NCBI GenBank assembly: GCA_965178125.1
Contig: OZ237774.1
Location: 62,001-126,000 of the forward strand
DNA from: Bilabrum cf. latius
Lineage: Eukaryota
DNA length: 64,000 bases
Direction of reading: 5' to 3'
Shown: one piece after another, positions 1-64,000 of the stretch
Layout of the letters: each line of letters begins with the position of its first letter
Position numbering within the stretch: the first letter of the stretch is position 1
Program-made: the position numbers and the translations under genes
Notes under the pieces: generated by a model
Seen by the model: only the letters and a program-made list of their open reading frames with translations
What the model was told of the DNA's origin: nothing
Databases searched by the model: none

Positions 1-1626
1 GAAGAGGAGGAGGAGGATGACCCAGCCCCCGAGGAAGCACGGCTGATTCCGGCCGCTCTCTTCCTCAGCTCACCCAGCAGTTTCAGCGACAGCGCCCTGC
101 CTGTCCCTTCGTATCCGTTGACTGTGGATGACATGAAGACGAGGTAGGGCCCCAGCAGTGACCTGACCACTGGCAGCGGGATGGCAGCGGCCTCGTCGAT
201 TGCGAGCAGCTCGCATTGGGACAGCTTCACTGCGTCTGTCGGGTGGATGTACTGCACCGTCTGCCGATGGTGCCTCGAGATGTCCACCCGCACGATGCTG
301 CTGCCCCCATCCCCTCCCCTGCCGCCCCCATGCCCCGACCCCATGCCCATGCTCGCCGCCGCCACCGCCGAGAAATCCGAGTGTTCCTCGTACCCAAGGG
401 CCCGCAGACCTCGGAATAGGAATTCGAACACCGTGCCGAGATTCTCGGGGGACGGCGCTGTGACGAATATGTTCGCATACCCGAACCCCACAGCGGAAGC
501 CAGGGCCAGACCAAGTGCCGCCGACTTGCCCCGCCCCCTGCCCGCCGTCAGCGCCACAGTGGCCCGCAGCGATTTCTCCGCCGTGGCCTCCCCGAAAGTC
601 ATGAGTGCCCTGGCCTGGTCCGCCGTCCTGGCCAGCCCGACGAGGGGACCCACCACGGGTGCATCTGCCATGGATTTCTGCACCTTTGCCAGCTCCTTGC
701 CCTCGGGCCCGCCGTCAGACTCTGCCGAGGCAGTCGGCAGCTTGCTCCCGCTCCCCTCTTGCTTCTCCTCCTCGTTGACCGCGCCCCCGGAAGCAGCGGC
801 CCCCAGTGCCCTCGCGTGCTGAGACACGGGCAGCACGTTGAGCTCGTCGTCCAGCACCAGGGCAGACCTGCACTGCGCAAGGGACAGCAGGAACCGCTCG
901 TTGAACCGGGGAACAACGTCAGTGTGCGCGGCGGTGCGGAACCTCTGGTGCGCGTCCATGGCCATGGTGAACAGCTGCCTCAGGGAACTCATCGTCCTGA
1001 GCAGCAGCACCACCAGGCCGCCACCTTCGACCGTCTCCACCGTGCGGCACAGCAGGTTGGGCGTCAGCGCCTCGAAGTCCTGCAGCACGCACACACCAAA
1101 GGTCTGTCCCAGGACCTTGTGTGTGTCCTTGTAGTAGGTCCACTTGACGTGCGTGGCAGATACGAAGAGCTCGAATGGCTCCTCCCTCTGGCTGTCCCAG
1201 GTGCCTTTGCGCTGCTGCTGCTTGATGGCCTTCATTCGCTTCTGTCGGTGGCTGCGAGGGTACGGTTGGATATATGCTTTGGAGTGATACACTTAGCACA
1301 GACGAGTTCGTTGCACTGCTAAGGAGCTGCCGTCCCACAACTCATCATGATGGTCATGTGCAACTGCAACAGCGAACACCGTGCTCTACTTGAATGAAGT
1401 TTGCGGTATCTGCAGACGCATCTCACGTGCTAAAGCCTAGTTCTTTTGAATAGCACCACAGTACGGAGGGGCGCGCTTTCACGCGAAGCTTGGATAGCAT
1501 GTGATGCAAGTTCACAACTTGATCCCTGCCGCGGTCTCCTACGATCACAAACAGGCTGCGGTGCCGGTGCTTGATCCCCTGCTCCATCAGCGTCCGCACT
1601 CGAGAGTCAACCTTTTTCTTTGGCAT
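1..1626 (-). CDS. NAT10: RNA cytidine acetyltransferase NAT10/Kre33, 5' part (continues beyond window start)
   Basis: Exon 1 (1626-1427) encodes MPKKKVDSRVRTLMEQGIKHRHRSLFVIVGDRGRDQVVNLH...VLWCYSKELGFS. A GT-AG intron spans 1426-1252. Exon 2 encodes HRQKRMKAIK...VLGQTFGVCVLQDFEALTPNLLCRTVETVEGGG...RFNERFLLSL and later ARGRGKSAALGL and IFVTAPSPENL, all typical NAT10 motifs. Confidence 0.95.
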
Positions 1627-1946
1627 AATGTCTTGGGAAAGGCTGTTGATGCTTGAACCAAGCAGTGTATTGCGGGGGACAGCGGCAGGTTCGCCACTCC
1701 AAATAGAACGTTCGGTACATCGTCTGAAATTTCGCAACCGGCAATCATTTGAAGTTCCGGCGCAATGGTGTGGCAGTACTACGATATTATGCACGAGTTA
1801 GTTTGAATGGTGAGTATTCTAGGCTCGATAGCGCTAGCTGCTCGTTTCGTTGCACCCGTAGTTGCAGTGCTTGCCAAAAAAAAATGCCAGGACGTTTCTT
1901 GGGCTAAACTCTCCAGTTCTCACTAGTGTCTGGATTTATCAAATGG

Positions 1947-3274
1947 ATGTTGGAGAAGCCAAAGATGGATCTGGTGATGATTGGACTGCCGGGATCTGGC
2001 AAAACAGTGAGTATATCCCCCGGAACAAGCGTGCAACTGCACAAGGCCTGCAGCTGCGTGGGAATCAAGCAGTAGCTCAGAAGGTACAAACTGTGGCGGC
2101 ATGCACTATCTAGTGCGGGTATTGCTCAGCCACCACTGGACCGACCTGATCCCATCCCAAGCTGAGCTCTCTCTGTCATACCCTCGCGCTCACATTCACC
2201 CTCGCGCTCACATTCACCCTCACGCTCACTCACCCTCGCCCTCGCGTTGCACTCTTCCCGCAGACCATGCTGGAGCGGGCCCGTCGGGACCTGAACGCAG
2301 CGGGGCCCCGGCGCGCCCTGGACAAGATCCACCCCACCAGGGGTGTCAACGTCGCCTCCCTCCCAGTCGGCAAATGGCACGTTACAACGAGCGACTGCGG
2401 GGGCTCCATGCCCTCCACCTGGCCCCATTACACGGCGGATGCGCACGGCCTCGTGTTCGCAGTAGACGCCAGGTGCCTGCTCCCCGGGGGAAACCCCGCC
2501 CCCACTGTGGGGGCGCTGGTCCGGTGCCTCAGGGGGAGGGAGGGGGGCATCCGGCTCGGCACCCCGGTGGCCGTGGTGGTGACACGGGCAGACGCAGCAG
2601 AGGGTGCGGGTGCAGCGCACGATGGTGCAGATGGAGCACCGGACAAGGGCAGGAAACGAGGACCCGGAGCCGGAAGCGGCACCGACGGGGGGCCCGCACT
2701 CCCTGGCAGCAAAGGAGGAGGAGGTGGGTCCTGCTCTGTGCTCGTTCACTCGGAGCCGCTGACCAAGGCCGCGGTGGAGCGGGTGCTGGTGCCTGCAGCC
2801 AGGGAGGTGGGGCTGCAGCTGCGGCTGGAGGGGGGCTTGGGACACGGCGAATCGGCGGTCGGGGGCTAGGGCGATGATGCCGGCGGTGGTGGGGGCACGA
2901 GTCCAACTGCCGTTGCTGTACCCAGGGAACACACAGGCGGCCTAGTATCAGGTGCGGGCACATCACCTGAGGCCGGCGTGCATGCCCTGGTAGAGGGGAA
3001 GGGGAAGATGAAGGGGGAGGAGCGGCTAGGAAGCGCCGAGGCCGATGGCTCCCCCACGGCGCCCACAAGGGCATTGGACCCGGAATCGGAAGCACAAGGG
3101 GTTGGGGGTCCGGTGCACCGCGGCAGGGTACTGCGGGCGCGCGTGTTTTGCTGCAGCGCACTGCGGGGGGAAGGCGAGGGGGCGAGCGCCCCCTTCCTGT
3201 GGCTGGTGGGCGCGGTGGAGGAGTCGCCCGCCGTCATGGCCAGGATCGAGGCGGCTGCCAAGGACGGAGTGTGA
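1947..3274 (+). CDS. ARF/ARL-family small GTPase-like protein with long low-complexity inserts (1 in-frame TAG)
   Basis: Exon 1 (1947-2006) encodes MLEKPKMDLVMIGLPGSGKT (P-loop). Intron 2007-2263. Exon 2 has PTRGVNV, DCGG, WPHY and GLVFAVDA. After TAG 2867-2869 the same frame reaches the ARF C-terminal motif RVFCCSALRGEG..FLWL and TGA at 3272-3274. The start is uncertain. Confidence 0.8.
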
Positions 3275-5587: not shown

Positions 5588-6347
5588 TTAGTTCCCCTTC
5601 TTCGTCCCCTTATCCGACTTGAATGCCTCGAGGTCCTTCTTCACCTCCTTCTCCACCTCGTCGTGGAATCCTCGCATGAACCCGCACAGCATGAGGAACT
5701 CCATCAGCACGAACAGGGGGGCCATGAAGATGCTCTAGGGCAGGTTGTCCAGAAGGGCGGGGGCGCGGCCCTCGTGGACGAAGTGCCCGTAGAACTGGGC
5801 CACCCACGTGAAGCCGTGCACGGCCCATAGAGTGCCGTAGATGGACCAGCCGTACTCGGCTGCGACCATTTCGGCGGTGAGAAGACCGGCGCCCAGCAGC
5901 GGAAAGGCGAGCATGCCCAGCGGGATGTCCATGAACAGGTAAAACAGCGCGTAGCACGTGGCAAAGATGAAGGACACGTGTCCGAAGGAGAAGAACGGAA
6001 GTACTTTCTCCGCACTGGCCTGCAGACTAGCCACCGCGGGCACGTGCTCTGCGATGAGCTCCCTCGGAACCTCGTGGTAGCTGAAGATGCAGAAAGCTGT
6101 CCACAGGAGGATCGGTACGCAAACCAAATGAATCAGCTTGTTACTGCATTACTCGAATGAAATCAGCGACCGGATGGCAAGACAATTCAACGCAGCTGCG
6201 CACGTTGGAATATCCAGTTGCTGTTTACACGCCCCATCACGATCGGGTCAAGTGATCTACGGCTGCACCGACTCACACAAATTCACTGTGGTAACCGGCG
6301 TAGAAACGAAAGTTTCGAAACAGAAATGTGTCCTTTGCAGACCCCAT
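5588..6347 (-). CDS. MPO1: Mpo1/DUF962-family ER membrane protein (2-hydroxy fatty acid dioxygenase-like); 1 in-frame TAG, TAA stop
   Basis: Exon 1 (6347-6277) encodes MGSAKDTFLFRNFRFYAGYHSEFV. Intron 6276-6144. Exon 2 encodes NKLIHLVCVP...WVAQFYGHFVHEGRAPALLDNLP[TAG 5735-5737]SIFMAPLFVLME...KGTKKGN and stops at TAA 5588-5590, leaving a KKXX ER-retrieval terminus. Confidence 0.9.
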
Positions 6348-6485: not shown

Positions 6486-7844
6486 ATGGCAGCCTTGAAA
6501 AAAGTGTCTGGTGTTTTTATCGTAGCGGTGAGTTGTTCCTAGAATGGCCAGTGTTTCTGGAATTAGCTCGCATGTCCCGGCGAATAGTATCGCCAGCATC
6601 CGTCACCCAGCTGAGCAACGCAAGTGATGGCATTCATATCACCAATTGCCTCACTATTCTATTGGCAGGCGCGGCGTACGGCCTTTGGTACGTTTGGCGG
6701 AGCTCTGAAAAACTTTACAGCAACCGATTTGGGCCAGTTTGCCTCCGAGGCGGCCATCAAGGACGCCGGCGTGGACCCCAAGCGGATCGATGCGAGCATC
6801 TTCGGCAGCGTGGCGCAGACCAGCACCGACGCTCCCTATTTGGCAAGGCATGTGGGCCTGCGGGCCGGCATGGACGTATCCTCCACCGCGCTGACGTTGA
6901 ACCGGCTGTGCGGCAGCGGGTTCCAATCAGTCATCACTGCAGCCGAGCAGATCCTGCTGGGGGAGTCCAGCGTGGTGCTGGCGGGCGGCAGCGAGAGCAT
7001 GTCCCAGGCGCCCCTGTCCGTGTACGGGCAACACGCCAGGTTCGGCCACCGCCTGGGGGCTGACCTGCAGCTGCAGGACACTCTCTGGAGCGCGCTGACG
7101 GACGCGCACGCCCAGGTGCCAATGGGCATCACCGCCGAGAACCTTGCGACCAAGTACGGCATCACCAGGGAACAAGCGGACGAGTACGGGTACCGCTCCC
7201 AGCAGGCGTGGGCCGCTGCACAGGAGGCCGGCGTCTTCTCCTCCGAGATCGCCCCCCTGGACCTGGGCAAGAAGAAGGGCCAGTTTGCAGTGGACGAGCA
7301 CCCTAGGCCGCAGACATCGCTGGAGAAGATGGGCCAGCTCAGGCCGGTCTTCAAGAAGGACGGGACCGTGACAGCGGCGAACGCATCTGGCATCGGTGAC
7401 GGGGCCGCTGCCCTCGTGGTCGCATCCGAAGAGGCCTTGGGCCCCGGCGGTGCCTTGGAAGGTGCCACCCCCCTGGTGCGGGTGGTGGGCTGGGGGGTAT
7501 CCGGCGTGGAGCCCACGGAGATGGGCATCGGGCCGTGCCCCGCCGTGCGCACCGCACTGCATCGCACGGGTCACTCTCTCGAGGACGCGGACGTGGTCGA
7601 GGTGAACGAGGCCTTCGCCTCCCAGTACCTAGCCGTTGAGAAGGAGCTGGGGCTAGACCGGAACAAGACGAACCGACACGGGGGTGCGATCGCCCTCGCG
7701 CACCCACTGGGCGCCTCGGGTGCTCGCATCCTGACTCACCTGACGCACCAGCTGTCCCAGGAGGGGGGGTCGGACAAGGTGGGCATCGGGGCCGCGTGCA
7801 TCGGGGGCGGGCAGGGCATCGCTGTGGTGCTGGAGCGGGTGTGA
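6486..7844 (+). CDS. 3-ketoacyl-CoA thiolase (ACAA2-like)
   Basis: Exon 1 is 6486-6527 and the intron is 6528-6668. Motifs are [55 protein letters not shown] and [10 protein letters not shown]. It ends at TGA and has no TAG. Confidence 0.95.
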
Positions 7845-9630: not shown

Positions 9631-11291
9631 ATGCAAGCTGTTGCAAGAAACGATGTGGACAAGCTTCGGGCGGCACTGCAAGCAGGAGGACCTGTGGATC
9701 GTGTTTTTGGAGTGAGCTCAGTCCACTATGCATCCTTTTAAGGATAGTAGCGAACGAAGTTTTCGAGTATGACTTCAACTTCCATATTCGCAGCGTGGCT
9801 CCACTCCATTGACTTGGGCCGCACTATACGGTCGTGTACAATGCTTGGATCTACTTGTTGAATTCGGTGCGGATCTTGAGCATAAAATGGCCGTGAGCAC
9901 GGCTTCCTTTGCAATTATGTATTGGATCTTACTCGATGCTGCCCTGCGCACCAGTTGCGAGTAATCCCAGTGAGTCATTGCATCAGTTGTATTACGCGTT
10001 CCAATTCCTTCCAAAAGTGAGTCGCGTGCAGTTTGGTTGGACCGCCCTGATGAGTGCCAGCAGCAACGGGCAGACGGCTGCCGTCCAGCGCCTGCTGGAT
10101 GCAGGTGCTGACGTTGGAACGACAGACGAGGTGAGGGCGAATCGCTTCTAGTATTCAATTGCTATGCTGGAAATGCATTTCTGAAATCAGCTGCGTCCGA
10201 TCGCTGCTCGCTTCCTCCCTCACTTCCCAGTACGGGTACACCCCGCTTCACACCGCCAGCCAGTCCCACCAGGATGGCCACCTGCAGTGCATGGAGGTGC
10301 TGATTCGCGCTGGCGCAGATGTGAACGCGCAGTCATCAGTGAGGTTTGCAATCGCTCTATACCGCTCGGCATACCGCCACTGCTGCCATCCTGGGGGTGT
10401 GAATGGTTGGGTTTGTGGGAGTGAATGCGCGCGGGCAGCTTGAAGCCATGTATCGCATCTGCGGCAGCTGTCACCGCTGCAACTATACGGCAGCGTGTGG
10501 CATTCCTCTGCTATGAATTCTAGTAGTTGTGTAGCTTTGCTTTGCTGCCGCAGGGGCTTGAGACCCCTCTGATGTGCGCCGCCGATGAAAGCATGCTGGA
10601 GGCATGCTCTCTGCTGCTGGGTGCAGGAGCCGACAGGTCTATTCAAGACGACGTGAGCGAATTGCAGAGTGCGTGATATTGATCGATTAAATGTGAATTT
10701 CCAGTGAAAGCGCAGATAGACCGCGCCGCCCTCCGACTCGTCTCTCATTTCAGCTGCCCAAGACGCTGCCTGCGCCGATCCACGATCCAAAAAGGATGAC
10801 ATCCCGACCTTCTACCGGTGCCAGCCATGCCGTGACTCCTAGCACCCGTCCATGACTCATAGCAACCGTCCATGACTCATAGCACCCGTCCATGACTCCT
10901 AGCACCCGTCCATGACTCCTAGCACCCGTCCATGACTCATACCAATCATCCGGACCCGCAGGAAGGGAAGACGCCAGCGCAACGAGCCTTGGATGAGAAT
11001 CGCACGACGTGTGCCGAGCTGATCCGATCGTACATTGATCCAATCCCCCTCAGGCTGCTGCTCTGGAAGCGGGCCCATGAGGCGCACAGGGACGCGGGCA
11101 TGGTGTTCAGGGCGGCTGCAGAGGGCAGGCCCATGGAGCTGGCCAGGAGGCTGAGGCTGGGCAAGCTGGCCGGCGGGCTGGAGATGAGGGGCGAGGTGGA
11201 GGACGGGGCGGGCGGGACTAAGGTGGTGGGTCCGCTGGAGGCGGCTCGATTGGGCGAGCATGGCGAGTGCGTTGAGCTGCTTGAAAGCTGA
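9631..11291 (+). CDS. Ankyrin-repeat protein with the shared C-terminal module (copy 2)
   Basis: Exons are 9631-9711, 9794-9892, 10032-10130, 10231-10338, 10554-10652 and 10962-11291, all phase 0 with GT-AG borders. ANK motifs are TPLTWAA, TALMSAS, TPLHTAS and TPLMCAA. It ends at TGA; the start is uncertain. Confidence 0.8.
10831..10940 (+). repeat. Intronic 20-bp minisatellite (CATGACTC[A/C]TAGCACCCGTC), about 5.5 copies
   Basis: The tandem copies are directly visible. The duplicated intron carries about 3 copies at roughly 14615-14675. Confidence 0.9.
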
Positions 11292-12641
11292 GTGGCGATC
11301 TGATGACCAGAGTCTTGTGAAGACGAAAGGAGGGAAATAAGCTGGCGAGTCGGGTGCTGAGTGATAGTGATCGCAGTGATTGAATGTAGAGTGGCCTAGA
11401 TCTAGGCACAACATTTTTTAAGTATCCGCAATTGCCACAGACCTGTATTGCCACCACCATGCAATGTAAGTGATTGAGGATCCCCAACCCTTCCCTCTAA
11501 GGTTCAGAAATCGTTTGTACTAGCATTGTCGAAATATGATGCAACGGCCCTCCGTGAGCGTGGACATCACGATGCAAAAGATCTGCCTTGACCTCGTCCT
11601 GCGACGCGATCCCATCTGGATACCTACATGTAACCTTACCAGAAGCTTCCCCAGTACGCAACTTCAACCGATTCCTTCATCATTCCGCTTTAGGGTCAGC
11701 TTGAGTCCCTAAAGAAGATGGAGCTGGAGGCTTTGGATTCCTCTGGCGTCACGATTGAGGAGCTACCGAGCGGGGCTGGAGGCGGATCCTCTGCTTCTGC
11801 TCCTGCTTCCCCACAGCTCCTGTGGAGCGAGCAGAGCTCATCCTCCTCGGACGGCGGGAACCATAGTGTTGTGCCACGCGTAAAGGAATGGTGGGCGGTG
11901 AGTTCTGCGGTTGATGCTCTAGCTTAGGCTGGGGGGGCAGGAGGACGACGGGTGGAGGGGCGTGTAGGGGAGGAGACGGTGGGAGCTGTGGGTCAGGAGG
12001 GTGTACGGATTGCCCTGCTGTGCGATCGAGAAATTGATCCCGTATATCTAAGAGATTACCATCGTGTTACCCTCACCCCCCGTAGTTGCCCCCTAGCACC
12101 AAGCAATCTCACGAGTTGCGGTTGGGGGCGAGGCTGGGATCCAGTCGCCACCTGTCTCCGACCTTGCCGCGTACTTTAGGAATAGCTGACCCACATCGAA
12201 CTGGTGCAATAACTTCGCTGTACTCACTGCCCCCGACGAAGAGACCACGAAGAAGCTGGATGCCCACCTAGAACATGGTGGATCGCTCAGCGGGTACTGC
12301 TGCCCGAGTCCTAAGGAGATCACCGATTCCGACAACGGAGCGACCTAGAGCGGGTGATGTGCTGAAATTCTTGGAGTGAATTGGCCGCATAAAGCGTCGG
12401 AGTCATAGCTGGTCTCGGAAACCGAGAGCCACATCAACCTTCAGGCGCTGTGGACGTTGAGATCCCAAAACGTTCAACGATACCAATGTAGAAGTAGAAT
12501 GTGGGGGGTTGGAAACAGGTTTCGAGGATTGTGTTAATGCATTGTTCTGTGTGTGGACGCTGGGAAATGTCTCATGCCAGACGGCGACGGGCCGTGCCGC
12601 AATCGCGAAGCTGGAAGCTCCCAAGGTGGCTGAAGCACGGT

Positions 12642-13728
12642 GCATACGGATTCGCCGACGAGATGGAGGCATACGAGGAGGAACGCGATGAGTCAGTTCT
12701 GATGGCTGATTGTCAGCTCGAGCGGGGCTGTGTGACGGAGGAGGTGGTTTGCCGACGGAGAGGGGCAGGGCCAGCAACACGTTGTATCCAAGAGACGGCG
12801 AGGCTGGGGCGAAGGAGCGATTGTCTGAATTCGTCCCACCGGAAAAACGGTTATAGGATCAAGTTAAAGTCATTGACACCGTGTCGTACTCCTCTCGAGC
12901 GGCATAAGAGCCTCGATTTTCGGATCACTAGCAAACACCCGTCGCCTCTCCACAAATCAGGATGCGGTCGCTCCCATCTACACTGTGGCAAGCACGTGCC
13001 GCTTCTGAGGCTCAATGACAAGGCATACGGATTCGCCGACGAGATGGAGGCACACGAGGAGGAACGTGATGAGTCAGTTCTGATGGCTGATTGTCAGCTC
13101 GAGCGGGGCTGTGTGACGGAGGAGGTGGTTTGCCGACGGAGAGGGGCAGGGCCAGCAACACGTTGTATCCAAGAGACGGCGAGGCTGGGGCGAAGGAGCG
13201 ATTGTCTGAATTCGTCCCACCGGAAAAACGGTTATAGGATCAAGTTAAAGTCATTGACACCGTGTCGTACTCCTCTCGAGCGGCATAAGAGCCTCGATTT
13301 TCGGATCACTAGCAAACACCCGTCGCCTCTCCACAAATCAGGATGCGGTCGCTCCCATCTACACTGTGGCAAGCACGTGCCGCTTCTGAGGCTCAATGAC
13401 AAGGCATACGGATTCGCCGACGAGATGGAGGCACACGAGGAGGAACGTGATGAGTCAGTTCTGATGGCTCAGCTCGAGCGGGGCTGTGTGACGGAGGAGG
13501 TGGTTTGCCGACGGAGAGGGGCAGGGCCAGCAACACGTTGTATCCAAGAGACGGCGAGGCTGGGGCGAAGGAGCGATTGTCTGAATTCGTCCCACCGGAA
13601 AAACGGTTATAGGATCAAGTTAAAGTCATTGACACCGTGTCGTACTCCTCTCGAGCGGCATAAGAGCCTCGATTTTCGGATCACTAGCAAACACCCGTCG
13701 CCTCTCCACAAATCAGGATGCGGTCGCT
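12642..13728 (+). repeat. 381-bp tandem repeat, about 2.85 near-identical copies
   Basis: The unit start GCATACGGATTCGCCGACGAGATGGAGGCA occurs at 12642, 13023 and 13404. The third copy lacks 6 bp (GATTGT) and is truncated. Confidence 0.95.
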
Positions 13729-14021
13729 TACACCAGTTCCCCCCGAGTAGCACGAGCTGCTTTGCTTGTCAGCGACATGACAGCATCAGATTTACCAAGT
13801 GCCATGGCGTAGGCCTTCTTCGCGTCTGTTGCTGCTTCACCTGCTGCTTCGAAGGCCTCTTTCTTGGCCTTCAATTCGGCTTGCACTGCAGTTCCAAGTC
13901 CCTCACAAGCCTCAACTATTAGTTTGGCCCCCGCGGATACCCCATTCTTGTACTCCTAAGTCTTCTTCAATTCTAGAGTGGCTTCCATCTCCTCAAATGG
14001 TTTCTTACCAACTCCGGCCAT
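13728..14021 (-). CDS. Small Ala/Lys/Glu-rich helical hypothetical protein, 97 aa (1 in-frame TAG, TAA stop)
   Basis: The start context is AAAAACAATG. It translates as MAGVGKKPFEEMEATLELKKT[TAG 13956-13958]EYKNGVSAGAKLIVEACEGLGTAVQAELKAKKEAFEAAGEAATDAKKAYAMALGKS...GELV-TAA. Confidence 0.45.
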
Positions 14022-14327
14022 TGTTTTTAAGGTTTAGCACTGGAGAAGTGGGGGTGGTTCAAATGGGTCCGTAAATAACGAATTGAAATAACCCCACACA
14101 ACAAAACTTAGTAACGAAAGTTCTTCAACTTTCGGCGCCGGTATCCGGGTCGGCTTGAGCGAGTTACCCTTGGGCTATTCCCGGGTCCGCCGCATTGTCT
14201 ATCTTTCTGGGCGCTTCGTCTACTGAAGTCCATTAGCTCGGACATCGGCTACCTGCTCCTCAGTGGTATCACCCGCAAACTCAGCAGCACGAGCTTGTGA
14301 GAGCTTTCGCCACATCCGCTCGCGCAG

Positions 14328-15015: not shown

Positions 15016-15283
15016 GAGGTGATCTGATGACTAGAGTCTTGTGAAGACGAAAGGAGGGAAATAAGCTGGCGAGTCGGGTGGTGAGTGATTGGAGCTGGAG
15101 CGGGCTCGATTTAGGCACAGTTTTTCCGAGTCTCCGCTATTGCCACAGAACCGTATTTGCCACCAGTCACCAGTGGCGCACCACCATGCAATGTTGCGTG
15201 CTATTCCTAGAGACGTAGTTCTCGACAATCTCCCCCAGTCCATTTACATTGAGGCCAAAACAACTACTTGTCTGCTGTATATC

Positions 15284-22695: not shown

Positions 22696-22769
22696 AGGTC
22701 GCTTTCGGGCCTGAGCGAACCTTCGTTGCTTGCGATCGAATTGCTGGTCTACTCGCACACTTGTTCAAG

Positions 22770-27244: not shown

Positions 27245-27290
27245 CTCACTCGTACACCGAGATGCAATCGTACTCGGATCCGATGCAGGG

Positions 27291-50093: not shown

Positions 50094-52301
50094 TCAAATG
50101 CAAACCATCGGACCCGCCCCGTCACCACCAGAGGGCAGCACCGCCACATTGAACAGCGCCAGACCCAGCGCAAGGTTCACAAAGAAACAGCTCATGGCAG
50201 CCCCCACAATCAGGCCCGGCGACACCTCCCAGCCGATGCGCGGCCTCAGCAGCAGCAGCGAGGGAAACCCGAACAGCAGGGTCTGCAGGCCCCACCCGAG
50301 TGCGAACTGCTTGCCCCCAAACGCGCCCAGAAACCCCACGGCTCCCTCCACCACGTGCGTCGCGACCAGCCCGAACACGATCGAGTCTAGGAGCCCCTGG
50401 GTGGTCAAGCGCACCCCAAAACAGGCCCCACCTTCATCTCCTCCTAGTTCTCCTCCTTCACCCAACCCGACTACCCCAGCCATCCCAGCGAACAGCTCCA
50501 GCCCACTGGCCCAGCCTCCCCACTCCGAGGCAGACGCAAGCCCCTGCACTATGGCCCGCCCCGCCCCAGTATCGGTCTCTATCCAGGTCCGCAGACCCCT
50601 CCAGTCCAGCCACAGGAGCAGCAGGACCGCGGCCGCGACACCGAGCCCCTTGGCGCTTCCTTGTGCCCCCGCCCACTCGACTTCTCCCGACCATCCTTCC
50701 TCACTCAGTGCATCTGCCAGGAGCACAGGCTGCTGCACTGGGGGCACCAGCGGAACATATCCGAGCCGGCGCCGCGCCTCCCCGCACAGGTAGAAGTTGT
50801 GCCGGTGGATCTTGCGGCAGTCGGCCCGCGTCAGAAACGGCTCCGGGCGGAATGCCCCCAGGGTGACGGTTGCAACCGCCCAGGCCAGGAGCTCTAGAAA
50901 GCAGGCCCCCAGCCAGACGAGCCACTCCGGGGCGTAGAACAGCGGAGGCACCTGCTCCAGCGAAACCGCCTCCCTCGTCAGCTCACCCGCCTCTGCATCG
51001 ATGCCCTTGCCATCAGCTGCAACACGGCCATCACCCCCGGTTGCAACCACCGCGCGGGTCCCGTAGGCCGCCGGGAAGCCCAGCCTGCGGCCCACCTCGG
51101 AGAACAGCCCGAGGGTTGCAACCGGCCACTCGTCAGTGACGAAGAGGGCACGTCCCGCTGCCCTCCTGCGGGCCTCCTCGCCCTCCAGCTCCAGGGAACA
51201 AATACCCCTCACAAAAGCGCGAGCCAAATTCTCGCAGTAGGTGTAGTCCATCAATCCGGAGCCAAATGCCATGGCAAGGGGCGCACCCAGCTGGGAGGCC
51301 AGCATGAACTTGGGCAGGTGGTGCGCTTCGCCCGGGCCCAGGATGCCGTTGGGACGGAGTGCCAGACAGGCCATCTGCGGGGTGCTGGTGGTGCTGCTGC
51401 TGCTGCTGCTGGTGCTGGTGCTGGTGCTGGTGCTGGTGATAGCAGATCGCACCTTTTGCTTCTTTTGACCATTGGCGCCCCCGCTTCCATTCCTGTCGCT
51501 CCCTCGCTTTCCATCCCTTGGACCGTCATGGGCAGTAGATGCCGATCCAGCTGCGGCCGGCTACACGGCACCCTCCCCCTCCCCCTGCCCCTCCCTGGTG
51601 TCAGGGAATGGCCCGATGGACGCCCTCATCGCCAGCCTCTCCGCTGCCCATTTGGACCAGGAATACGAGTCGTTGAGGATACCAGCATCGGGGCCCACTT
51701 CAAGGGCAAGGGGATCGGCGGCTGCACGACTATCCCTCGCGAGCCCGCTGTCAACAGGATCGGAGCCTGGCGGTTGGCTAGAGGCAGCATGAGTATCGCC
51801 ATTGCTGGAAAGCAGGAATAAGAACTCGTCGGGGGGCGGCGGGCACGTGTGCTCGGTTCCGTTCGCGACGTCCGAGTGTCCCCGAAACACCACGCCGGTG
51901 GAAGATGCCAGTAGGAAGCTGGTCGCCCCTCCATCTCTGGCATGCCGCAGAAGCTTGCGTGTGCCCTCTATGTTAACGCGGCGAAGCATCGTTTCTGTGG
52001 CCGCGGCCGGCAGGTTGAATGGGACGAGTGCCCCGAGGTGCACGACAGACCGGAAGGGACCGTGCTCCTCGAACAGAGCGGCGATGCTCGACCCGTCCGA
52101 AAGATCACTGGCAATAAATTGTACTAGTTTGAACTGGTCATCGCTCATTCGCATGCTAGATGCTGAGCATGATTCAATGGCGCGAGGCAAGTCAGTGGCA
52201 GTGACGTCGAACCGCCCGTCCTCCAACAGCTACCGAATCACGGTCCGGCCGGTTAGGCCAGTCGCACCAGTCACAAGAACTCTCAATTGGGTCATACTCA
52301 T
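50094..52301 (-). CDS. 3-beta-hydroxysteroid dehydrogenase/NSDHL-like extended SDR with a hydrophobic C-terminus; 2 in-frame TAGs
   Basis: It starts MSMTQLRVLVTGATGLTGRTVIR[TAG 52230]LLEDG (Rossmann). Further motifs are VVHLGA, VNIEGT, ASSTGVVF, YSWSKWAAE (YxxxK), then after TAG 51561 LRPNGILGPG and DYTYCENLA. It ends at TGA 50094-50096. Confidence 0.88.
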
Positions 52302-52678
52302 CAAGTCTGCGCGAGCAATATTCAATTAGATCTAGGACCCGCAGGATTGCTGAACGCGACTTCCGGGTTTAGGCTACATGTGGTTCCGCCGCCGGCGTGC
52401 GCGGTGCCCGCCGGCGTGCTCAAGTGGCCAAGCCACCGGCGTCAGCCGGTGTATGCATCACTGCCAGCACAATGCACAACCACCGCCGCCATCTTTTCAG
52501 TGCGAACCGCATTGTCTTAAATCACTGTAAGGCTCGATTGGTTGGCGTGGCATACATACGAGCACTCCCTCATCTTTGCTTTGAATACCCGGGACCTATA
52601 ACCGCATATATACTTGACAGACGAAATTGACAAGGCGGGAAAACCGCCTTTTTTTTTGACTCGAAGCATGGATCCAAC

Positions 52679-54091
52679 TCACGAAACGCTGCAGCCACAA
52701 CCCCGTCCGGCACATATACCCGCCTCGACTTCCCAGCCCAGTGTAGCTCCTGAATGAATCGCACGCCTGTTTCTCTCTCTCGCCAGTGACCTCCGAAGTA
52801 GCTTGGCGCACTCATCATGCCCATTCCTTGCTGCAGCCTGCATCGCGTCAATCTTCACACCGCCGACAGCCACCTTCTATTCCGCACCACCTGCCATCAC
52901 TCCCAGCCTCAGCCTCCTTGCAAGCTCCAGTGGCCTGCCCTCAGCTGCTGCCCGCCACACCAGTCCGGCATCTCTCTTCGCATCACTTGCTGCTCGGTGC
53001 CGCACGATTGTCCTTATCTTGGACATCCTGGACCGGTGTTCTTCGAGTTTGGGTAGGAATTTGCGGCGAGCCATAGCGGTGAAATGTCTCATCTCAAAGT
53101 TCCTCCAATCAAAAAACACCATTCGTGGGTTATCAGCAACAGCATCTATTGTATTTGTGTACTCAACAAACGCTTTCTCTTGGTTGCGACTACCATCATA
53201 CGAGTAGCCAATTGCCAGCGACTGCAAAGCTACATTCCGTCGTATTGCCTGTCTCACCAAATCCATCGTGGTTTGACCTGGCGGCCTTATATTGCGCGGA
53301 TCTTCGCGCATATTGAACCTAATCCACAAGTCATGAATGCCCTTGTTGAGCTGAATGAAGCGAGGCACGGTGCTTGCGATCAGTTGGAAAGCCTGCCTGT
53401 TGCCTGCTCGTATGGATATGGATAGCCACCTGATAGTCCTGTTTGCAACCAGTGCATTCGACCACGCCTAGAGTTCGTCACACAACACAATACACGTCCC
53501 AAGACCACAGTGGGTCACGCTCTTGTTCCGTTCGATCGCATCTGCCGTAATTCGATTGTGCAGGCAGTACCTCGTCATTGTGTCCGCAGTCAAGGGCGGA
53601 CCACCGATATGCAAACCAAGCGTCCCTCCCATGCACAGTGAGGTAATACTGCAATTCGAGTCGACCAACACATCGCGAAGACACTCCATGCATTCTGTGG
53701 GTATCGTCAATGCATGGTGGAGGTGCAGAGAGGCGAGTCTGGGTGCCCCGCCCTTTCTGAGCATCGCAGGAGCCAGTGCAGCCATGGCATCGTTCGTCCA
53801 CTTGCACTATTCGAAGCAAAGGCATTGCAAATGCTACTCATCAGAACCGTCGCATGCCATTCGGTACAAAATGGAAGCGAGATCTGCATGAATCGTATCA
53901 CGATTCAGTTGCAAGGTTCGGAGACGAACGCCTTCTTCTCCAATCACTTTCTCTAGTTGCGCAGCACATGCATTTCCTGCCGAATTCGGGAGGCTCAAAG
54001 TAGAAAAGCCAAACAGAGCTGCTTGCACGGCCGCACGAACTCCCTTTGACTTACCGGTATATTCAAAGCCGTGAGTCTAGATACCTGGCAT
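52679..54091 (-). CDS. RNI/LRR-like protein fused to the shared C-terminal module (module copy 5); at least 5 in-frame TAGs
   Basis: One frame spans ORFs 53834-54028, 53468-53785, 52877-53368 and 52679-52873 via TAG at 54077, 53834, 53807, 53468 and 52877. LxxLxL-type segments are LRTLQL, LASLHL and ITSLCM. The module reads RDAGLVWRAAAEGRPLELARRLRLG...AARNGHDECAKLL. It ends at TGA; the 5' end is uncertain. Confidence 0.7.
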
Positions 54092-54413
54092 AAATCCACA
54101 AGCTGGCTGCATGTAAATCAGTGATAGCACACAATAAGGGGGCCACAAGTGGGCAGTATGAGGCAGATGGAAACACTTCAAACCGCTCTACCAATCGCTC
54201 ACCAGTGGTTGTTCACATGGGAATTCCCACGAAAACTACCTACATCCTATCATCACTAGCAATAACTTTACTTTCTATACACAATATAATACTGGTGGCA
54301 ATCACCGGGCTTCCATTTTAGCAGTTCATGTCGAAGGTTCCATTTGGTTCCGCCGCATGATTTCGCGCGGTGCCTCCAGCTCTGCCTCGGCCTCGCGCCG
54401 GCCTACAGTTGGA

Positions 54414-56507: not shown

Positions 56508-57911
56508 TCAAGAAAGGATGCAAGGACATACGGCACTAATGCAATCATCATCTTTCCAACCCCTCCTCTTGCCTGAGTATATGACACGCCTGTTTCTCTC
56601 TCTCGCAAGAGATCTCCGTACTAGCTGAGCACATTCATCGTGCCCATTCCTTGCTGCAGCCTGCATCGCGTCAATCTTCACACCGCCGACAGCCACCTTC
56701 TACTCCGCACCACCTGCCATCACACCCAGTCTCAGCCTCCTTGCAAGCTCCAGTGGCCTGCCCTCGGCTGCGGCCCGCCACACCAGTCCGGCGTCTCTCT
56801 TTGCATCACTTGCTGCTCGATGCCGCACGATTGTCCTTATCTTGGACATCCTGGACCGGTGTTCTTCGAGTTTGGGCAGGAAGGTCCGCTTGACTCTGAC
56901 GACGCTTGCTCTCATACACGAGCTCCACCAGTTGAAAAACACCATTCGCGGGTTGTCTGCCACGGCCTGAAGCGTTTTGGAGTACTCGTCGTGCGCCTTC
57001 CGACGGTCCTAGAACTCGTCTCCAAGCCCAATGGACAACGCTCGCATTCCCTAGTTTTGCCGTATTGCCTGTCTCAGCAAATCCATCGTGGTTTGACCTG
57101 TTTTTTTTTTATACCAGGGATCTTCGCACATATTGAACCTCATCCACAAGTCACGAATGCCCTTGTTGAGCTGAACGAAGCGAGGCACAGTGCTTGCGAT
57201 CAGTTGGAAAGCCTGCAGGTTGCCAGCTAGTATGGATATGGATAGCCACCTGATAGTTCTGTTTGCAACCAGTGCATTCGACCACGCCTAGAGCTCGTCT
57301 TGGAACACTATACACGTCCCTAGGCCGCAGTGGGTTACGCTCTTGTTCCGTTCGATCGCATCTGCCATCACTCGATTTCGGTTGCAGTTCAACTGTATCG
57401 CGGGCTAAGCCAGCGATATAGAGTCCTCAAGCCAGCCAAGCGTCCCTCCCATACATAGTGAATCAATGCTGCAATTCGAGTCGACCAAGACATCCCGAAG
57501 CAGCTCGATGCATTCGATAGGTATAGTACGTGCGTGGTGGAGGTGCAGAGATGTGAGCCTGGGAGCCCCGCCCTTTGCAAGCATTGCTGGTGCTAGTGCA
57601 GCCATGGCATCTCGCTTCCATTCGCACTATTGGAAGCATAAGCATTGCAAGTGCAGCTCATCAATTGCAACGGAAGCCAGTTGGCTCAAGTTTGCGGCAA
57701 GTTCTGCATCTACTACATCCTGATGCAGTTGCAAGCACCGAAGTCGAGCACCATCTAAATTATGCATGCTACATAACTCTGAGACGCTTGCGCTCCCTGT
57801 TGAATCAGGAAGGTAAATGGTTGAGAAGCCTGCCTTCACAGCTCTACGTACTTCGCCAGTCGAGCTGGTATTACCGGAGCAATCGCACTTTTTGAAATCA
57901 ATGCCAGGCAT
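56508..57911 (-). CDS. Paralog of 52679-54091: RNI/LRR-like protein + shared C-terminal module (module copy 6); at least 6 in-frame TAGs
   Basis: It aligns with the other paralog from MPGI onward (HLQCLCF, AMAALAPAML.KGGAPRL, ADAIERNKSVTHCGLGTCIV, ADNPRMVFF). TAGs are at 57627, 57405, 57288, 57051, 57009 and 56700, with TGA at 56508-56510. The 5' end may extend toward about 58300. Confidence 0.7.
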
Positions 57912-58363
57912 GCAGCTGCACCTTAACTGTAGCACGGGAAATACAAGAGGGCGTTGTGGCAAGACGCGTTCAAACTACCAGTGAGCATAGGAGTAGAGCT
58001 CAGATCTCAATGCGGTTCTCACCATGGCATGATCACATGGAAACTCCGAAGCAAACCAACATCCTCTCATTATAATCCTGTAAATCAATGTTCTGATGAC
58101 TGATACCTGGAATAGATAGTCTAGTTTCTTTAGTTCCGCTAAATCCTGATGCGCGGCGCCATTGGAACCATCGAATCCGTGGATAAACATCCAGACTGCA
58201 TCAGATATCGCCAGGTATTATCTGGAGTATAAGTTTTTTCATCTTTTGCACGAGTCGCTGTAGAGCAGCCGCTAAACGTAGCAATCGATTGATTGAATCC
58301 AGTGGTTGAAGAACCCTTCAGCGACATCCTGGAACTTCGCAGTTCTCCTGGTTGTTTGTTGCA

Positions 58364-61300
58364 ATGGCGAAACCCCCTTCCAAAGAGAGAGCCAAGCGTC
58401 TGACCCCAGCCCCGCTCGGCTTGCTATCGGCTACAGTGCTTCGGCCTGCAGCATGGATGGCCTGGCCAGGAGAGCGATCATCCACTGCCACTGGCAGCAC
58501 GCAGCGCAGCACCGGCATAGGCGACAGGCTCACCGACGGACCAGCATCATCATCTAAGACCGGCAAGGCATCGCATGTTACGGCTCGAAGCGGCACTCGA
58601 CCGTCGTAGCCGCCCACCACCGCCCCTTAGCAGCCGCACCACAGCAGCAATCACCTCTAGCTGGAGCGAGCAGCAGCACCCATGCCGCGCGCGGGTGCAG
58701 TGGTCTCCGTGGCTGCCTCCTCGGGGGGATGCTACGCCGTCACCGACCGGGGACAGCTGCTGCGCGCGGGTGCATCGCACGGTGGCGTGGCACAGCTGAG
58801 GCCGGTCCCGGTGCGGGTGCCCCTGGCCCAGGTGGCCTGCGGCTTTGAGCACACCATGCTGCTGGATAGGCAGGGCGGTTTGCTGTGCGTGGGCAAGGAC
58901 GGGGGCACGGGGGCCCTGGGGGTGCCTGGGACCTCCGTTGTTCCCCGGGTGCGACCGTGCGTGGCGACGATCGGTCGCAAGGTCCTGGCGGTGGCAGCGT
59001 TCGGGCGTGGCACCGCCGTGGCGGTGCAGCGTGGCGGCGGTTCCGGTGTGCTGCGCTGGGGATCCGGAGCCGATCCCTCGGGGGGTGACGTGGGGGAGGA
59101 GAGCGGGGGCGATGGTGTGACGAGTGCGGCGGCGCGCGGGAAGGGGCTGGGGCCGCAGGGCGGGGGCGAGGGGCTGGTCTGGAGCGCGGGCGCATCGCAG
59201 TGCAATGCAGCCGGCATCCCGATCGAGGAGTGGGACCCTTGGCGCTTCACCCCCTTCCTGCATGAGGGCGGGGGCAGGCGCAGGCACATGCCACGGGTGG
59301 AGCAGGTGGCCCTGGGGCCGGAGCACTGCATTGCGGTGACGTCCGAGGGTCACGCGTACTACTGGGGCACGCATCAGGTGGTCAAACGCAGCGATGAAGG
59401 GGTGGTCAAAGCTGCGGAACTGCTGCGGCGCACATCGGCTGGCAATGGGCCCAGCGGGAGCAGCGAACGTGCCCAAAAGGCGGGTACGGGGTCAGGTGCA
59501 CTGCACGGTGGTGCAGTGTCGCTGCCCCCCGACCTGGAGCCCACGGGCACGCTGCGGGACAAGTTCGTCGCGGCGCCGGAACTGGTCGGTTCCGCAGCCC
59601 TCCGGGTGGCCGGCGCCAGTGCGGGCCGAGGGCGATCCTTTGTGCTGACCCAGGAAGGCCGGCTGCTGGCGTGGGGCTGCCTCGCGGGTTTGGCCAGGTC
59701 CAGGCCGGAACACCTTCTGGAGGCGGCGGCGCCGCGCATAGTTGGGGAGGCCGGGGATGTTGGGCCCAGCGGAACCGGTTCCGCTCCGCGCGGCGCCCGC
59801 GTGCCCCTGGAGCTGGCCCAGGCGGCCCGGCGCGCCGGGTGCGTCGTGCCGTGCGGGTGGGAGAGCGGCGGGATCCGGAGCCTAAACTACGGCCCGGCTT
59901 CGGTTGGTGGTGCCAGCGGTGGCGTGAGGTCTGCTGGGGCTGGGGGGCTGCCGCCTCGGGGACCCGGTTCCGCAGACGGCCGCGCGGGAGCGGGAAAGGC
60001 GGGCCTTGGGGTCGGACTCGATGCAATGGGTGGTGCTGGCTCTGGGGCAGTTTTGGCTCCGGGTCACTTGCTGTCGGCCGGGTCCATGCGTCGGGTGCAG
60101 AGCGAGACCGGGCCGCTGGACCGGTTGAGTGCCGGTGTGACGAGTGACGGAGGGAGTGTAACGAGTGAGCCGGAGGGCAAGGGGAAGCACCCGCTCGGGT
60201 CTCCGCTCGGGCGGCGGGGCAGGGGGGGTAATTCACCGGGGGGAAGGAAGGGGGCATCGACCCCATCGAGGGGACAGCGGGGTCTGCAGGCCATGGCCGC
60301 TCTTAGTTCCGCAAACGAGGGCGCCGCGCAGAAGCTCACCACGCCGCAGCTGATCCGGCAGATGTCCGAAGGCAGGATCGGATCGGGCAGCGGCAGCCGG
60401 GCCGGTTCGCCGGCGCCGCGCGGCGGGCCTGGTTCCGCAACCAGCAGCACTGAAGGCGCGCCGCGCGTGGCGCTCGCCGGTCTCCTGCATTCCGACTCCG
60501 ACTCCGACTCGGACTCGGACTCGGAATCGAAACCCGACCAGGCAGGCCCCGGGGCGGCGGCACAGGGGGGCCATGTGCCGGGTACAGGCGCGCGCGTGCC
60601 CAGGCAGGCCCCCCTTCGGACCAGGGCCGACAGCGACGGGCAGGGAGGCGCATGGAACGTGGCAGGGGGCGGGAACGTGGCAGGGGGCGGGAACGTGGCA
60701 GGGGGCGGGAGCGTGGCAGGGGGCGGGCCCGGTTCCGGTTTTGCCGCGGGGGCCAAGGGGGGGGGGCCCTCACCGGCAGGGAACAAGGCCCAGTCGGCAG
60801 GCGGGGGGAGCGGGCCCGAGGAGGACGACGATCGGAGCAGTGAGGCATCGGGGGCAAGGCGTAGCGCGCTATCGGGCGGAGCAGGTGCACTGCACGCAGG
60901 CGCGGGCGCGGGTCACGATCGCGACGATCTTGTCGGTGCCGGCGATGATGACTCACCGCACGGCGTTCCCGCGGGGAGGCAGAGCAGCCAGGAGACTGCA
61001 CCAATCGAAGATGAAGATGATACACGCATGGTTAGGTTGCAACCGCCGTGGCCGCCGTTGGGGTGGATTCCCCTGGGGGTTGTGGGGAGGGCGGGGGCGG
61101 CGCGAGACGTGGCTGCGGCGGGGCGGGGGCAGCCATGGCGGGTGGTTCCGCAAGGCGCGGCGCCGCTGCCGCCCACCCGGCGGGAGCAGCAGCTCGCACT
61201 TGCGACCAAGGCTGCGAGCACCTGCTTCCAGCCGCACTCGTCACCCCTGGACGTGAGCGGTGGCCTCCGGTGGCGGGCCATCGTGGAGGGGCCCTGGAGC

Positions 61301-64000
61301 GCGGAGGGGCAGCTGCGGGGCAGCGGTGTGACGAGTGCGATGGGGACTTCGCATGGGCTGGGCGGTGGCACGCTATCCCGGGATGCGTCTGCCCTGTCCC
61401 GGGGGTCCAGTGTGACGAGTGCGACGGGGGAGGAGGCCTTCGTGGCGGGTGCCACGGGCCTGCCGGGGCCGCGGGCGAGGGCGCTGCTCCGCCTGTGCGG
61501 GGGGAGTCCCGAGGCGGCCGTGGAATCCTGGCTGGGAGGAGGTGTGACGAGTGACCAGGTGGAGGCGGCCGTGTTTGAAGATGAAGCAGAGGCGGCCAGC
61601 AGGGAGGGGCGACTCACGCAGGCTAACAGGGGGGTGGCGGGGGCGGGGGCTCCCGACCCCCTGCCCAGGGCGGACTGCCCTCTGCCCGTGCACGGTGTGA
61701 CGAGTGACCACAGGGTGGCCGCCGTGCTTCTTCCGCCGGAGCGCCCTGCCGACCTGGTGGTGGGTGCATCGCACGGCGGTGCATGGGCGGGCGATCTCCT
61801 CGCCGATCCCCGGCCCCTCGGGCGAGTCGATGAGGTGGAGGGTTCGTCAGGCGCATCGCCATCATCGCCCTCGAAGGTTGCGGGATCGAAGCGGTTTTCG
61901 GGGAGTGAAGGTCGTTTTGCCGCCTCTGGCAGGGCACAAATGGCAGCCTGGCTTGCTCAGCGACTGGTTGGGTCCGCATGCGCGGCGCCGGTTCCGCTGC
62001 CAAAGCCCGCGGGTGCAGGATCGGCATTCCGAGCAGCAGCAGCCGCCGCCGGCGCTTCGGCCTCGGGCGATGCCGGCGCCGCGCAGCCTTCCGATGTTCC
62101 GCAATCCTTGTCGGAGGACGAGGGGCGCGACCTTGCGATCGCGGCGGGGCCACGCATGGCCGTGCTGTTTTCAGCTCCGGACGAATCGGTGCCCGGGCCC
62201 GTATCGGCTTCTATCCAGGGTGCAGCGCACGGCAGTGCACCCGGGGATGTCTGGGCCGCGGACGGACTCGACGCATAGATCGCGGTTGCAACCGCCGTCC
62301 TGATGGATTCGGAGCCACAACTCGCGGCGGAGGCAGCGCGGGTCTTGTGGGAGCACTTGGAAGGCGGCGAAACCGCAACCGGCAGAGGAAATGCGCGGCG
62401 CCCCCCGGGCCCCCTGGCCATGGTTCCGCTGCTCCCCGCCCGGCTCACCACGGCGGACGGTCCCCTGCACGTGACCCCACGATGGGGGGGGATTTCCCCC
62501 GAGTCCCACCGGCTGCTCCCCGGGCCCCTAGGCCTAGCCATCAGCCCCGCCCGGCTGCAGGTGCACGTCACTGCGGTGCTGCTGGCGTCCGGTGGGTCGC
62601 AGAAGCCCTTCGATCCTGCGAGCGGAGCGATGCTTCCAGCAGATGACCGCCCATCAGCGGCCCAGCCACCGCGAGCTGCATCGTCATCATCGTCATCGTC
62701 GTCGTCGTCGTCACATGCAGCCCAGGCCCAGGCCCTGGCCATCGCCATGCGGGGAGCCCCGGCCGGCGCGCTGGGGCCGTGGATGGGTCGGCTTGGGTCC
62801 GGTGTGACGCGCGTGGATGGGGGGGCCTCGACGGGGGCGCTCGTGGGGGCGGCGGCGGGTCTGCGGGCCGCGGCTGACGTCAGCGGGTCATCAGCTCTGA
62901 TGGTGCACTCGCTCGGGTCTAGGTGCCTGCGGGCGCCCACCGTGGCCGAGGAACAATCCGCGCTGGGAGTGCGCGGCGCCGGTTCCGCTGTGACGGGCAG
63001 GGTGCTCCGGGTGATGGGCCGGCGGGCGGTGTCGCAGGGCCTGGCGAGGGTGTGGGGCGGGCGTGTGACGAGTGCTGCGGCACGGTTCGGGAGTGGCGGC
63101 GGTGGTGACACGACTCGGGTCGCGGGGACAATTTCGGCACCGGATCTTGCCTGGCTCGCGGTGCGGGTCGCTTCCGGCGGGTCTGGTGGTTCGAGCCGAT
63201 CGAGTGCAGAGGTGGGCAGCAGCAGCAGCAGCAGCGGGAGCAGCATGGATGCCCAGTGGCTGGGGCGATTCGTTGTGTCGCTGCCTGGCGGTGCCCTCGA
63301 CCTCGAGATGGATGCTGGCGCACGGCAGAGGTCAGGGGGCCCTGAACACGATGACGATGGCGATGACGATGACGGTGATAATGGCCATGCTCCGCGATTG
63401 GACGCATAGTCACACCCAGGGCCCAGGGAACAAATGGGGCCCAGGGAACAACTGGGTCCCAGGGAACAACTGGGGCCCAGGGAACACGCCTTGGAAGCCG
63501 CACCCGCCGTGCGCGTGGCGGCGGGCTCGAGGAGCAGATGGCTGCTGACCCATCTCGGTGACCGACTGCGCTTGAGGGGTGGCCAAAGTGGCACCCCGGC
63601 GCGGGAGGGCCCTCGAGCAGCTTCTAATGCGCGAGGCAGGAGCGGCCTGTGGCACCCCTGGGAGGCACTGCCCCAGTACGGTCCCCCGCGCGGCGCCGAC
63701 GGAACCGAAGCGCCGCTGGCTGCGGATTTGACCGCGCTTGTGATGAACGGGCTCTTGTACGCCGGCGGTCTCCGCTCCGATGGAGACGAGGACGGCGGGC
63801 TCGCATCCGGGGAGGATGGTGTGACGAGTGGATCGGATCGCCGCGTGCTGCCGTCATCGCGCCGCCCCTCGGCCCGCGCCGTGCTCGGGCTCCTGGCCCA
63901 GTGGATCCACGAGGATCGGATCACCGTGCCTTGCTTGTTCCCTGGGGAACAGCAAGGACCGCGCGGCAGCACCGCCGGCGGCCAGGCCTCTCGGACCGAG
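58364..64000 (+). CDS. Very large RCC1-repeat protein with UBA-like and possible degenerate BTB-like segments (3'-incomplete); 5 in-frame TAGs
   Basis: One frame runs from ATG 58364 to the window end with TAG at 58607, 58628, 58658, 62276 and 63407 and no TAA/TGA. RCC1-like segments are QVACGFEHTMLLDRQG, QVALGPEHCIAVTSEGHAYYWG and SAGRGRSFVLTQEGRLLAWG. The UBA-like segment is ARALLRLCGGSPEAAVESWL. Confidence 0.75.

Follow-up and report, generated by a model that had tools for sequence, protein, structure and literature searches.

The 64,000-nucleotide stretch of Bilabrum cf. latius contig OZ237774.1 analysed here (hereafter the window) carries protein-coding genes in which TAG acts as a sense codon, and the residue that it specifies at conserved sites appears, from alignment to homologues, to be glutamine (Gln, Q). 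We put at about 0.87 the probability that the nuclear code is of the NCBI table 15 type, that is, that UAG is translated as Gln while UGA, the main terminator, and UAA are stops, in a GC-rich (~60%) eukaryote with short GT-AG introns. The window has a G+C content of 60.6% and is read as eukaryotic nuclear DNA. An earlier reading made from the letters of the window (the sequence-only reading) had proposed that UAG is reassigned to Gln genome-wide; in the window this stands, whereas its genome-wide validity, like the view that TAG never terminates, is an extrapolation from 64 kb. That TAA and TGA stay stops is a refinement of that reading.

Reading frames were taken with TAA and TGA alone as stops, and the open reading frames (ORFs) of the genes are thus free of these two triplets by choice. 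Fourteen genes were recognised by Pfam and PDB searches (Table 1), and their 15 homology-supported ORF pieces hold 36 in-frame TAGs, with at least one in 11 of the 14 genes. Thirty of the 36 lie downstream of the first ATG, and about seven are probably 5' of the real start: four at the 5' end of the SNF2 ORF, over a stretch where the 3' part of the RRM gene is read in a different frame, and three before the RCC1 methionine. Past the likely start, the SNF2 gene has six TAGs (22851, 23025, 23235, 24132, 24396 and 25008) and a TGA end, and the RCC1 gene has two (62276 and 63407). Ten more long ORFs with no Pfam match hold 39 TAGs in total, distributed over seven of the ten. The earlier count, which put about 60 TAGs into 16 or more genes of the two strands, was therefore of the right order of magnitude, and annotation under the standard code, as had been warned, would cut short or divide 11 of the 14 genes that can be recognised.

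No TAA or TGA is present in any of these homology-supported or Pfam-less frames, and for TAA this absence extends over about 15,900 codons. Across 9,764 homology-supported codons (12 ORFs), TAG, TAA and TGA occur in frame 32, 0 and 0 times, against 37, 11 and 170 times and 41, 20 and 138 times in the other two frames, and a further 5,665 ORF codons give 39, 0 and 0. TAG occurs equally often in and out of frame, and it is TAA and TGA that are kept out. A six-frame test made without gene selection, which counted a stop triplet only if 150 or more codons free of stops lay on each side of it, returned 13 TAG, 4 TGA and 2 TAA, and at a threshold of at least 200 codons it returned 7, 1 and 1; over the whole window the same triplets number 874, 1700 and 452. 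The long-flanked TGA and TAA cases belong to GC-rich genes read in an alternative or antisense frame, or span the intron of the isocitrate dehydrogenase (IDH) gene.

Conserved sequence follows the last TAG in the SNF2 (Helicase_C), DPH5, Mpo1, kinase, SDR (TMEM254 part), WD40 and RRM genes. In DPH5 the TAG lies in a low-complexity insert, with conserved C-terminal blocks including GPPLHSL downstream of it. Continuation of domains past TAG, as the sequence-only reading described it, holds for DPH5, RRM, SDR and the kinase and is weak for the ARF-like GTPase, where the Pfam match has an E value of 1.4e-4 and falls under the curated cut-off. TAG accounts for about 9-10% of Gln codons in the GC-rich housekeeping genes, with none in the most conserved metabolic genes, and for 16-36% of putative Gln codons in lower-GC lineage-specific genes, which show little bias in G+C at third codon positions. 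Lower-GC islands (55-57%) are found at about 8-20 kb, 40-44 kb and 52-56 kb, and the surrounding background is 60-71% GC.

The identity of the amino acid was read from alignable TAG columns. In motif III of the SNF2 ATPase, TGTPL[TAG]N, the column is Q in all three DDM1 alignments shown, from 74 PDB sequences matched at E<=1e-10. For the Mpo1 column, LLDNLP[TAG]SIFMAP, 120 homologues were compared, of which 107 have Q (G in 10, D in 2 and E in 1), among them a 96%-identical relative, P0001. The first 16 residues of P0001 are the translation of the Mpo1 intron of the window, so P0001 evidently stems from a gene call made on the genome sequence of a near relative with the standard code or a bacterial one; the Q at the TAG site presumably comes from a CAR codon, and a synonymous C/T difference of this kind would be expected if TAG is Gln. 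In the PINK1-like kinase, the TAG just before the HRD catalytic loop, WLL[TAG]VLQALEH, corresponds to Q in five of the five PINK1 PDB alignments shown (human and insect), and the C-lobe TAG, LRGLL[TAG]AHPRSR, to Q in three human PINK1 constructs and K in two insect constructs; both sites are Q in P0121, the sole hit of the kinase search, a relative that is 53-68% identical in aligned blocks. Finally, codon 1226 of a long lineage-specific ORF, orf15089, pairs with Q in the 76%-identical fragment P0246 and with W in the 35%-identical P0249. Q thus stands at all five strongly conserved alignable TAG columns and no rival residue recurs, and among closest-homologue sites (at least 50% identity) Q is found at four of the six alignable TAGs. 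The coordinates that the sequence-only reading gave for its four sites (24396, 5735-5737 on the minus strand, 47479 and 48562) are all exact, and its assignment of the SNF2, Mpo1 and PINK1 TAGs to Gln columns agrees with these alignments. TAGs inside Gln runs, which it had also pointed out, are present as CAG TAG CAG CAG at 47200-47211 and as TAG CAG at 38583 and 48862. TAG stands beside Gln codons in 4 of 29 cases, compared to 32 of 270 for CAG and 6% for other codons, which is in the right direction with numbers too small to count.

All 12 complete gene models reach TGA or TAA, with TGA at 11 ends and TAA at one (Mpo1). In the thiolase, the final position of the Thiolase_C profile falls on residue 408 of 409, and the C-terminal domain profile of IDH is matched over positions 1-110 of 110 at the last residue, so TGA is a true stop in both genes; a TGA just beyond the end of NAT10 exon 1 falls in the intron. 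No model needs a TAG end, as the sequence-only reading had said, and this is true for 12 of 12 models and at the same time partly a product of construction, ORFs having been read through TAG.

It is for this last reason that a dual role of UAG, both sense codon and stop as in Condylostoma, the karyorelicts and Amoebophrya sp. ex Karlodinium veneficum, has to be considered, since a terminal TAG would be hidden by the way in which ORFs were read. Some ORFs do have a long tail past a TAG in which no domain was detected, for example the armadillo-repeat gene, in which a TAG is codon 473 of 574. Against this stand the domain or conserved block beyond the last TAG in seven genes, the TGA or TAA end of every complete model, and the equal frequency of TAG in and out of frame, as TAG is not depleted in the way that would be expected if it still served as a stop. 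Codes without dedicated stops, such as those of Condylostoma, the karyorelicts, Blastocrithidia and this Amoebophrya, are not matched either, given no in-frame TGA or TAA against 170 and 138 TGAs and 11 and 20 TAAs in the other frames. We regard a dual role as improbable.

A code in which UAA and UAG both mean Gln (NCBI table 6, as in many ciliates and in hexamitin diplomonads) would require that in-frame TAA is merely rare because the DNA is GC-rich. TAA is indeed the rarest stop triplet in the window, and Mpo1 is the only gene end that uses it. The counts go the other way: no in-frame TAA was found in approximately 15,400 ORF codons of the window that hold 71 TAGs, where approximately 7-25 would be expected if TAA were also Gln (from CAA:CAG ratios of 62:268 and 62:141). 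The 55%-GC orf15089 has 17 TAG and 23 CAA codons and no TAA in 1680 codons, and P0001 ends no more than one residue away from the TAA of Mpo1. The missing in-frame TAAs therefore place the code with table 15 and not with table 6, which we consider quite unlikely.

Several observations count against UAG as Gln, or limit how far the table 15 assignment can be carried. The TAG in the Rossmann helix of the SDR (52232) is in a variable column, with D, A, E, E and A in five alignments; codon 548 of orf15089 pairs with A in a 78%-identical fragment; codon 1156 of the same ORF corresponds to W beside a gap, or to L; and three shorter copies of a family found in the window have M at one shared TAG column. 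Nine pairs of TAG with a non-TAG codon between the two paralogues A and B give S, W, L, P, D, L, A, V and R, with no Q. This comparison is judged to be uninformative on Gln, most pairs being in poorly aligned parts, and it lends Gln no support. The alignable TAG sites are only about eight in total (the TAG of the deaminase gene fell outside every PDB alignment obtained), termination at TAG was partly removed by construction, which leaves room for a dual sense and stop role, and all of the conclusions come from 64 kb. No tRNA gene was found in the window with ARAGORN, and eRF1 does not lie in it; the support comes from DNA and protein alignments.

The variable sites are what could speak for another amino acid, such as Leu (as in the rhizarian exLh), Ser, Glu, Lys or Trp, or for ambiguous decoding, since TAG pairs there with L, W, A, M, S and others and one well-aligned paralogue pair sets TAG against CTG. 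Yet only Q recurs at conserved columns, where all five are Q, and L is seen at just two poorly conserved paralogue positions; a residue other than Gln is accordingly very unlikely. Least credible of all is that the TAGs are not translated as such, being assembly or sequencing errors, traces of decayed pseudogenes, or CAG codons restored by U-to-C editing of mRNA: an apparent CAG-to-TAG rate of 10% from error, decay or C-to-T damage predicts about seven TAA and eight TGA in frame and none of either was seen, ORFs of 1,300-1,900 codons are open except for TAG, essential genes are affected, three TAGs are kept between diverged paralogues, and we know of no nuclear U-to-C editing on such a scale, even if restored CAG codons would likewise yield Gln at the same columns. 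Eight sequencing runs from four studies contain positions 22203-31000 or part of them, five with at least half of the words of this segment, although for the best runs this is not independent evidence; none of the eight is recorded as RNA. The absence of in-frame TAA and TGA speaks against the assembly-error explanation that the sequence-only reading had named as a way in which it might fail.

If UAG is read as Gln with UAA and UGA kept as stops, the likely basis, by analogy to other UAG-only lineages, would be a tRNA-Gln with anticodon CUA that pairs with UAG and not with UAA, and a release factor eRF1 that likely does not compete effectively at UAG.

The first UAG-only change to Gln to be described, according to the sections of Panek et al. 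2017 (PMC5304391) used here, was that of the fornicate Iotanema spirale, in which UAA and UGA are stops. As in the window, UAG alone is reassigned, to Gln, and UAA is kept as a terminator, which uncouples the meaning of UAG from that of UAA. The differences are that UAA is the main terminator of I. spirale, compared to TGA in 11 of 12 models here, and that I. spirale is an anaerobic metamonad, whereas the NAT10 of the window is nearest to Chromera and stramenopiles and the case made here is a genomic one alone. The portions consulted of McGowan et al. 2024 (PMC11687900) list the ciliates Hartmannula sinica, Trochilia petrani and Protocruzia tuzeti with UAG only as Gln (table 15), with 58-70% of internal UAGs at conserved Gln columns. 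The codon table is the same as that proposed here, with UAG in wide use for sense in both, and this share compares to four of six closest-homologue sites in the window. In those ciliates, as far as these portions go, UAA is preferred and UGA is least used, in contrast to the 60%-GC window with its preference for TGA; the genes of the window are long and rich in low-complexity sequence, with ordinary GT-AG introns, and apart from the code no sign of a ciliate is seen in the window. Table 6 codes are alike in that a stop codon has been captured for Gln, presumably via a mutated tRNA-Gln, and differ in the use of TAA, of which there is none here beside 71 TAGs. In Amoebophrya sp. ex Karlodinium veneficum all three stops are translated contextually, with UAR thought to be Gln (PMC12005148, in the parts drawn upon); the likeness is that in this protist of the myzozoan side about half of all genes, essential ones included, contain in-frame stops, and the difference is that three codons are involved in a genome that is AT-rich relative to its congeners, whereas the window is GC-rich, only TAG is affected, and TGA and TAA act as clean stops. 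The rhizarian exLh reads UAG as Leu (PMC5304391), and for Scotinosphaera PMC11687900 cites a reading as Ser; UAG alone is changed and UAA is a stop in both, as here, and the conserved columns here are Gln and not Leu or Ser.

Table 1. Genes, TAG sites, gene ends and repeated elements in the window
Feature	Position	Strand	Remarks
NAT10	3-1292, plus upstream exon	-	Pfam/PDB
ARF-like GTPase	2150-3274	+	weak Pfam match
Mpo1/DUF962	5588-6347	-	Pfam PF06127; exon 1 ~6347-6277, GT-AG intron, exon 2 6143-5591, TAA stop 5590-5588
Mpo1 TAG	5735-5737	-	conserved column
Thiolase	6615-7844	+	no TAG in frame
Thiolase TGA	7842-7844	+	end of Thiolase_C profile
orf15089	15089-20131	+	17 in-frame TAGs, 0 TAA/TGA
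orf15089 codon 1226 TAG	18764-18766	+	conserved column
RRM protein	20314-22695	+	Pfam/PDB
DDM1/LSH-like SNF2 ATPase	~22770-27026, start inferred	+	SNF2-rel_dom 1.5e-53, Helicase_C 4.1e-20
SNF2 motif III TAG	24396-24398	+	conserved column
CMP/dCMP-type deaminase	28683-29603	+	Pfam/PDB
Diphthine synthase (DPH5)	32681-33802	-	Pfam
DPH5 in-frame TAG	33236-33238	-	low-complexity insert
Isocitrate dehydrogenase	34375-36390; exons ~34378-34835, 35214-36387	+	no TAG in frame
IDH TGA	36388-36390	+	end of C-terminal domain profile
WD40 protein	37242-40814	+	Pfam/PDB
Armadillo-repeat protein	43458-45182	-	3 in-frame TAGs, TGA end
PINK1-like kinase ORF	45853-49815	+	9 in-frame TAGs (6 past first ATG), TGA end
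Kinase TAG before HRD loop	47479-47481	+	conserved column
Kinase C-lobe TAG	48562-48564	+	conserved column
3-beta-HSD/epimerase-type SDR	50094-52325	-	2 in-frame TAGs (first bases 52232, 51563), TGA end
Paralogue A	52679-54301	-	8 in-frame TAGs; LRR-like middle, shared C-terminal domain
Paralogue B	56508-58217	-	7 in-frame TAGs, 3 at same columns as A
RCC1-repeat protein	58310-64000, gene taken from 58685, continues beyond window	+	Pfam/PDB
C-terminal domain copies	10896-11291, 14620-15015	+
C-terminal domain copies	27291-27662, 52679-53100, 56508-56930	-
GGTGTGACGAGTG example sites	4896, 21880, 24696, 26331, 29440, 38490, 39051, 59114, 60134, 61325, 61541, 61694, 63818	+

In orf15089 the other two frames carry 32 and 45 TAA or TGA triplets; the ORF is under selection to stay open while it holds its 17 TAGs. 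When 1.84 billion representative proteins were searched, eight fragments proved to be related to it (P0242-P0249; 29-82% identity, 84-454 residues), which confirms that it encodes a real, lineage-restricted membrane protein family. The fragment P0246 begins six codons past the TAG at codon 1156 and ends just before the TAG at codon 1262, limits that would be expected if a relative or paralogue with in-frame stops at these positions had been called under the standard code. Several of the orf15089 database fragments have boundaries that adjoin TAG positions of the window. This suggests that public gene calls for this lineage have been chopped by the standard code, and the short fragments of this family look like an artefact of standard-code truncation.

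Paralogues A and B share three TAGs at common columns, and where their residues are identical the same codon is used at 241 of 332 positions. Both carry a C-terminal domain of approximately 120 residues (...AAAEGRP(M/L)ELARRLRLG...) that is present in five copies in the window and that represents a multicopy lineage-specific family of its lower-GC parts with no Pfam match; two of the copies are fused to larger LRR-like proteins. The ORF at 12393-14030 on the plus strand consists of about three tandem units of approximately 125 residues with four in-frame TAGs at the ends, and it also has no Pfam match.

Introns were delimited by eye, guided by the points at which homology stops and restarts. 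The three that were read, in NAT10 (GTGAGA...CGCAG), Mpo1 (GTGAGT...TGCAG) and IDH (GTGAGT...CGCAG), all start with GTGAG and end with CAG, are AT-richer and contain stops. The IDH product carries the domain PF18324, 'bacterial isocitrate dehydrogenase C-terminal domain' (E 4.9e-33), which is unusual for an intron-bearing eukaryotic nuclear gene. An ORF of 858 codons at 29628-32204 on the plus strand has good codon usage, no TAG and no Pfam match; its product has a signal-peptide-like start and C-terminal parts that are K/E-rich with Cys.

A 13-nt motif, GGTGTGACGAGTG, occurs 34 times in the window when up to two mismatches are allowed, against 1.94 expected, and none of 100 shuffles reached 34. 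Its 13 exact copies are all on the plus strand, inside plus-strand ORFs and in the same frame, reading (G)VTS, with no synonymous variation and with unrelated flanks; the motif is not found in the minus-strand genes, in the thiolase or in IDH. The idea that it marks the 5' end of introns, which would make the TAGs of low-complexity regions intronic, was rejected, as the segments that follow the motif are GC-rich and open and the real introns begin with GTGAG; the motif is unlikely to mark where introns start. For another candidate motif, GGATCGGATCAC, the enrichment in the window is weak, with 16 matches against 6.35 expected.

The signal on the lineage comes chiefly from NAT10, for which no protein of 729 residues or more exceeds 62% identity; among named proteins the closest are those of oomycetes, Cafeteria and Chromera, and identity to the Chromera and stramenopile proteins is about 57-62%. 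In a FastTree phylogeny of 382 columns, for which 48 sequences were taken from the 120 listed hits, the window pairs with Chromera with a local support of 0.915. As this is a single gene with biased sampling, affinity to the Chromera side is a weak lead only. The Mpo1 and kinase searches each returned one close relative (P0001 and P0121).

Changes to the nuclear code are rare, and a change to UAG without UAA is rarer still, with just a handful of lineages described in the papers used here. Unless the code of this organism has already been published, the window represents a new case of a known code variant. A literature search found no report of a GC-rich non-ciliate with UAG only as Gln; supplements were outside the search, and this is weak evidence of absence. 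We tentatively suggest, at slightly less than even odds, an independent and so far unpublished change of UAG to Gln. It would belong to a GC-rich lineage of protists outside the ciliates that has been little sampled, perhaps on the alveolate or Chromera side, and would be the first of the table 15 type with UGA as the dominant terminator, with TAG positions apparently conserved in relatives or paralogues and with TAG use concentrated in lower-GC islands of lineage-specific families.

Any proteome, orthology or phylogenomic use of the genome needs table 15. A GC-rich, mostly UGA-terminating genome would be a new setting for a UAG-only change, the published cases being ones that, in the parts of the reports used here, prefer UAA. 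GC-rich genomes with the standard code make more use of UAG as a stop, with 30% of genes in one GC-richer ciliate (PMC11687900, in the sections consulted), and the capture of UAG here should therefore have cost more. A costlier capture of this kind bears on the choice between codon-capture and ambiguous-intermediate models of code change.

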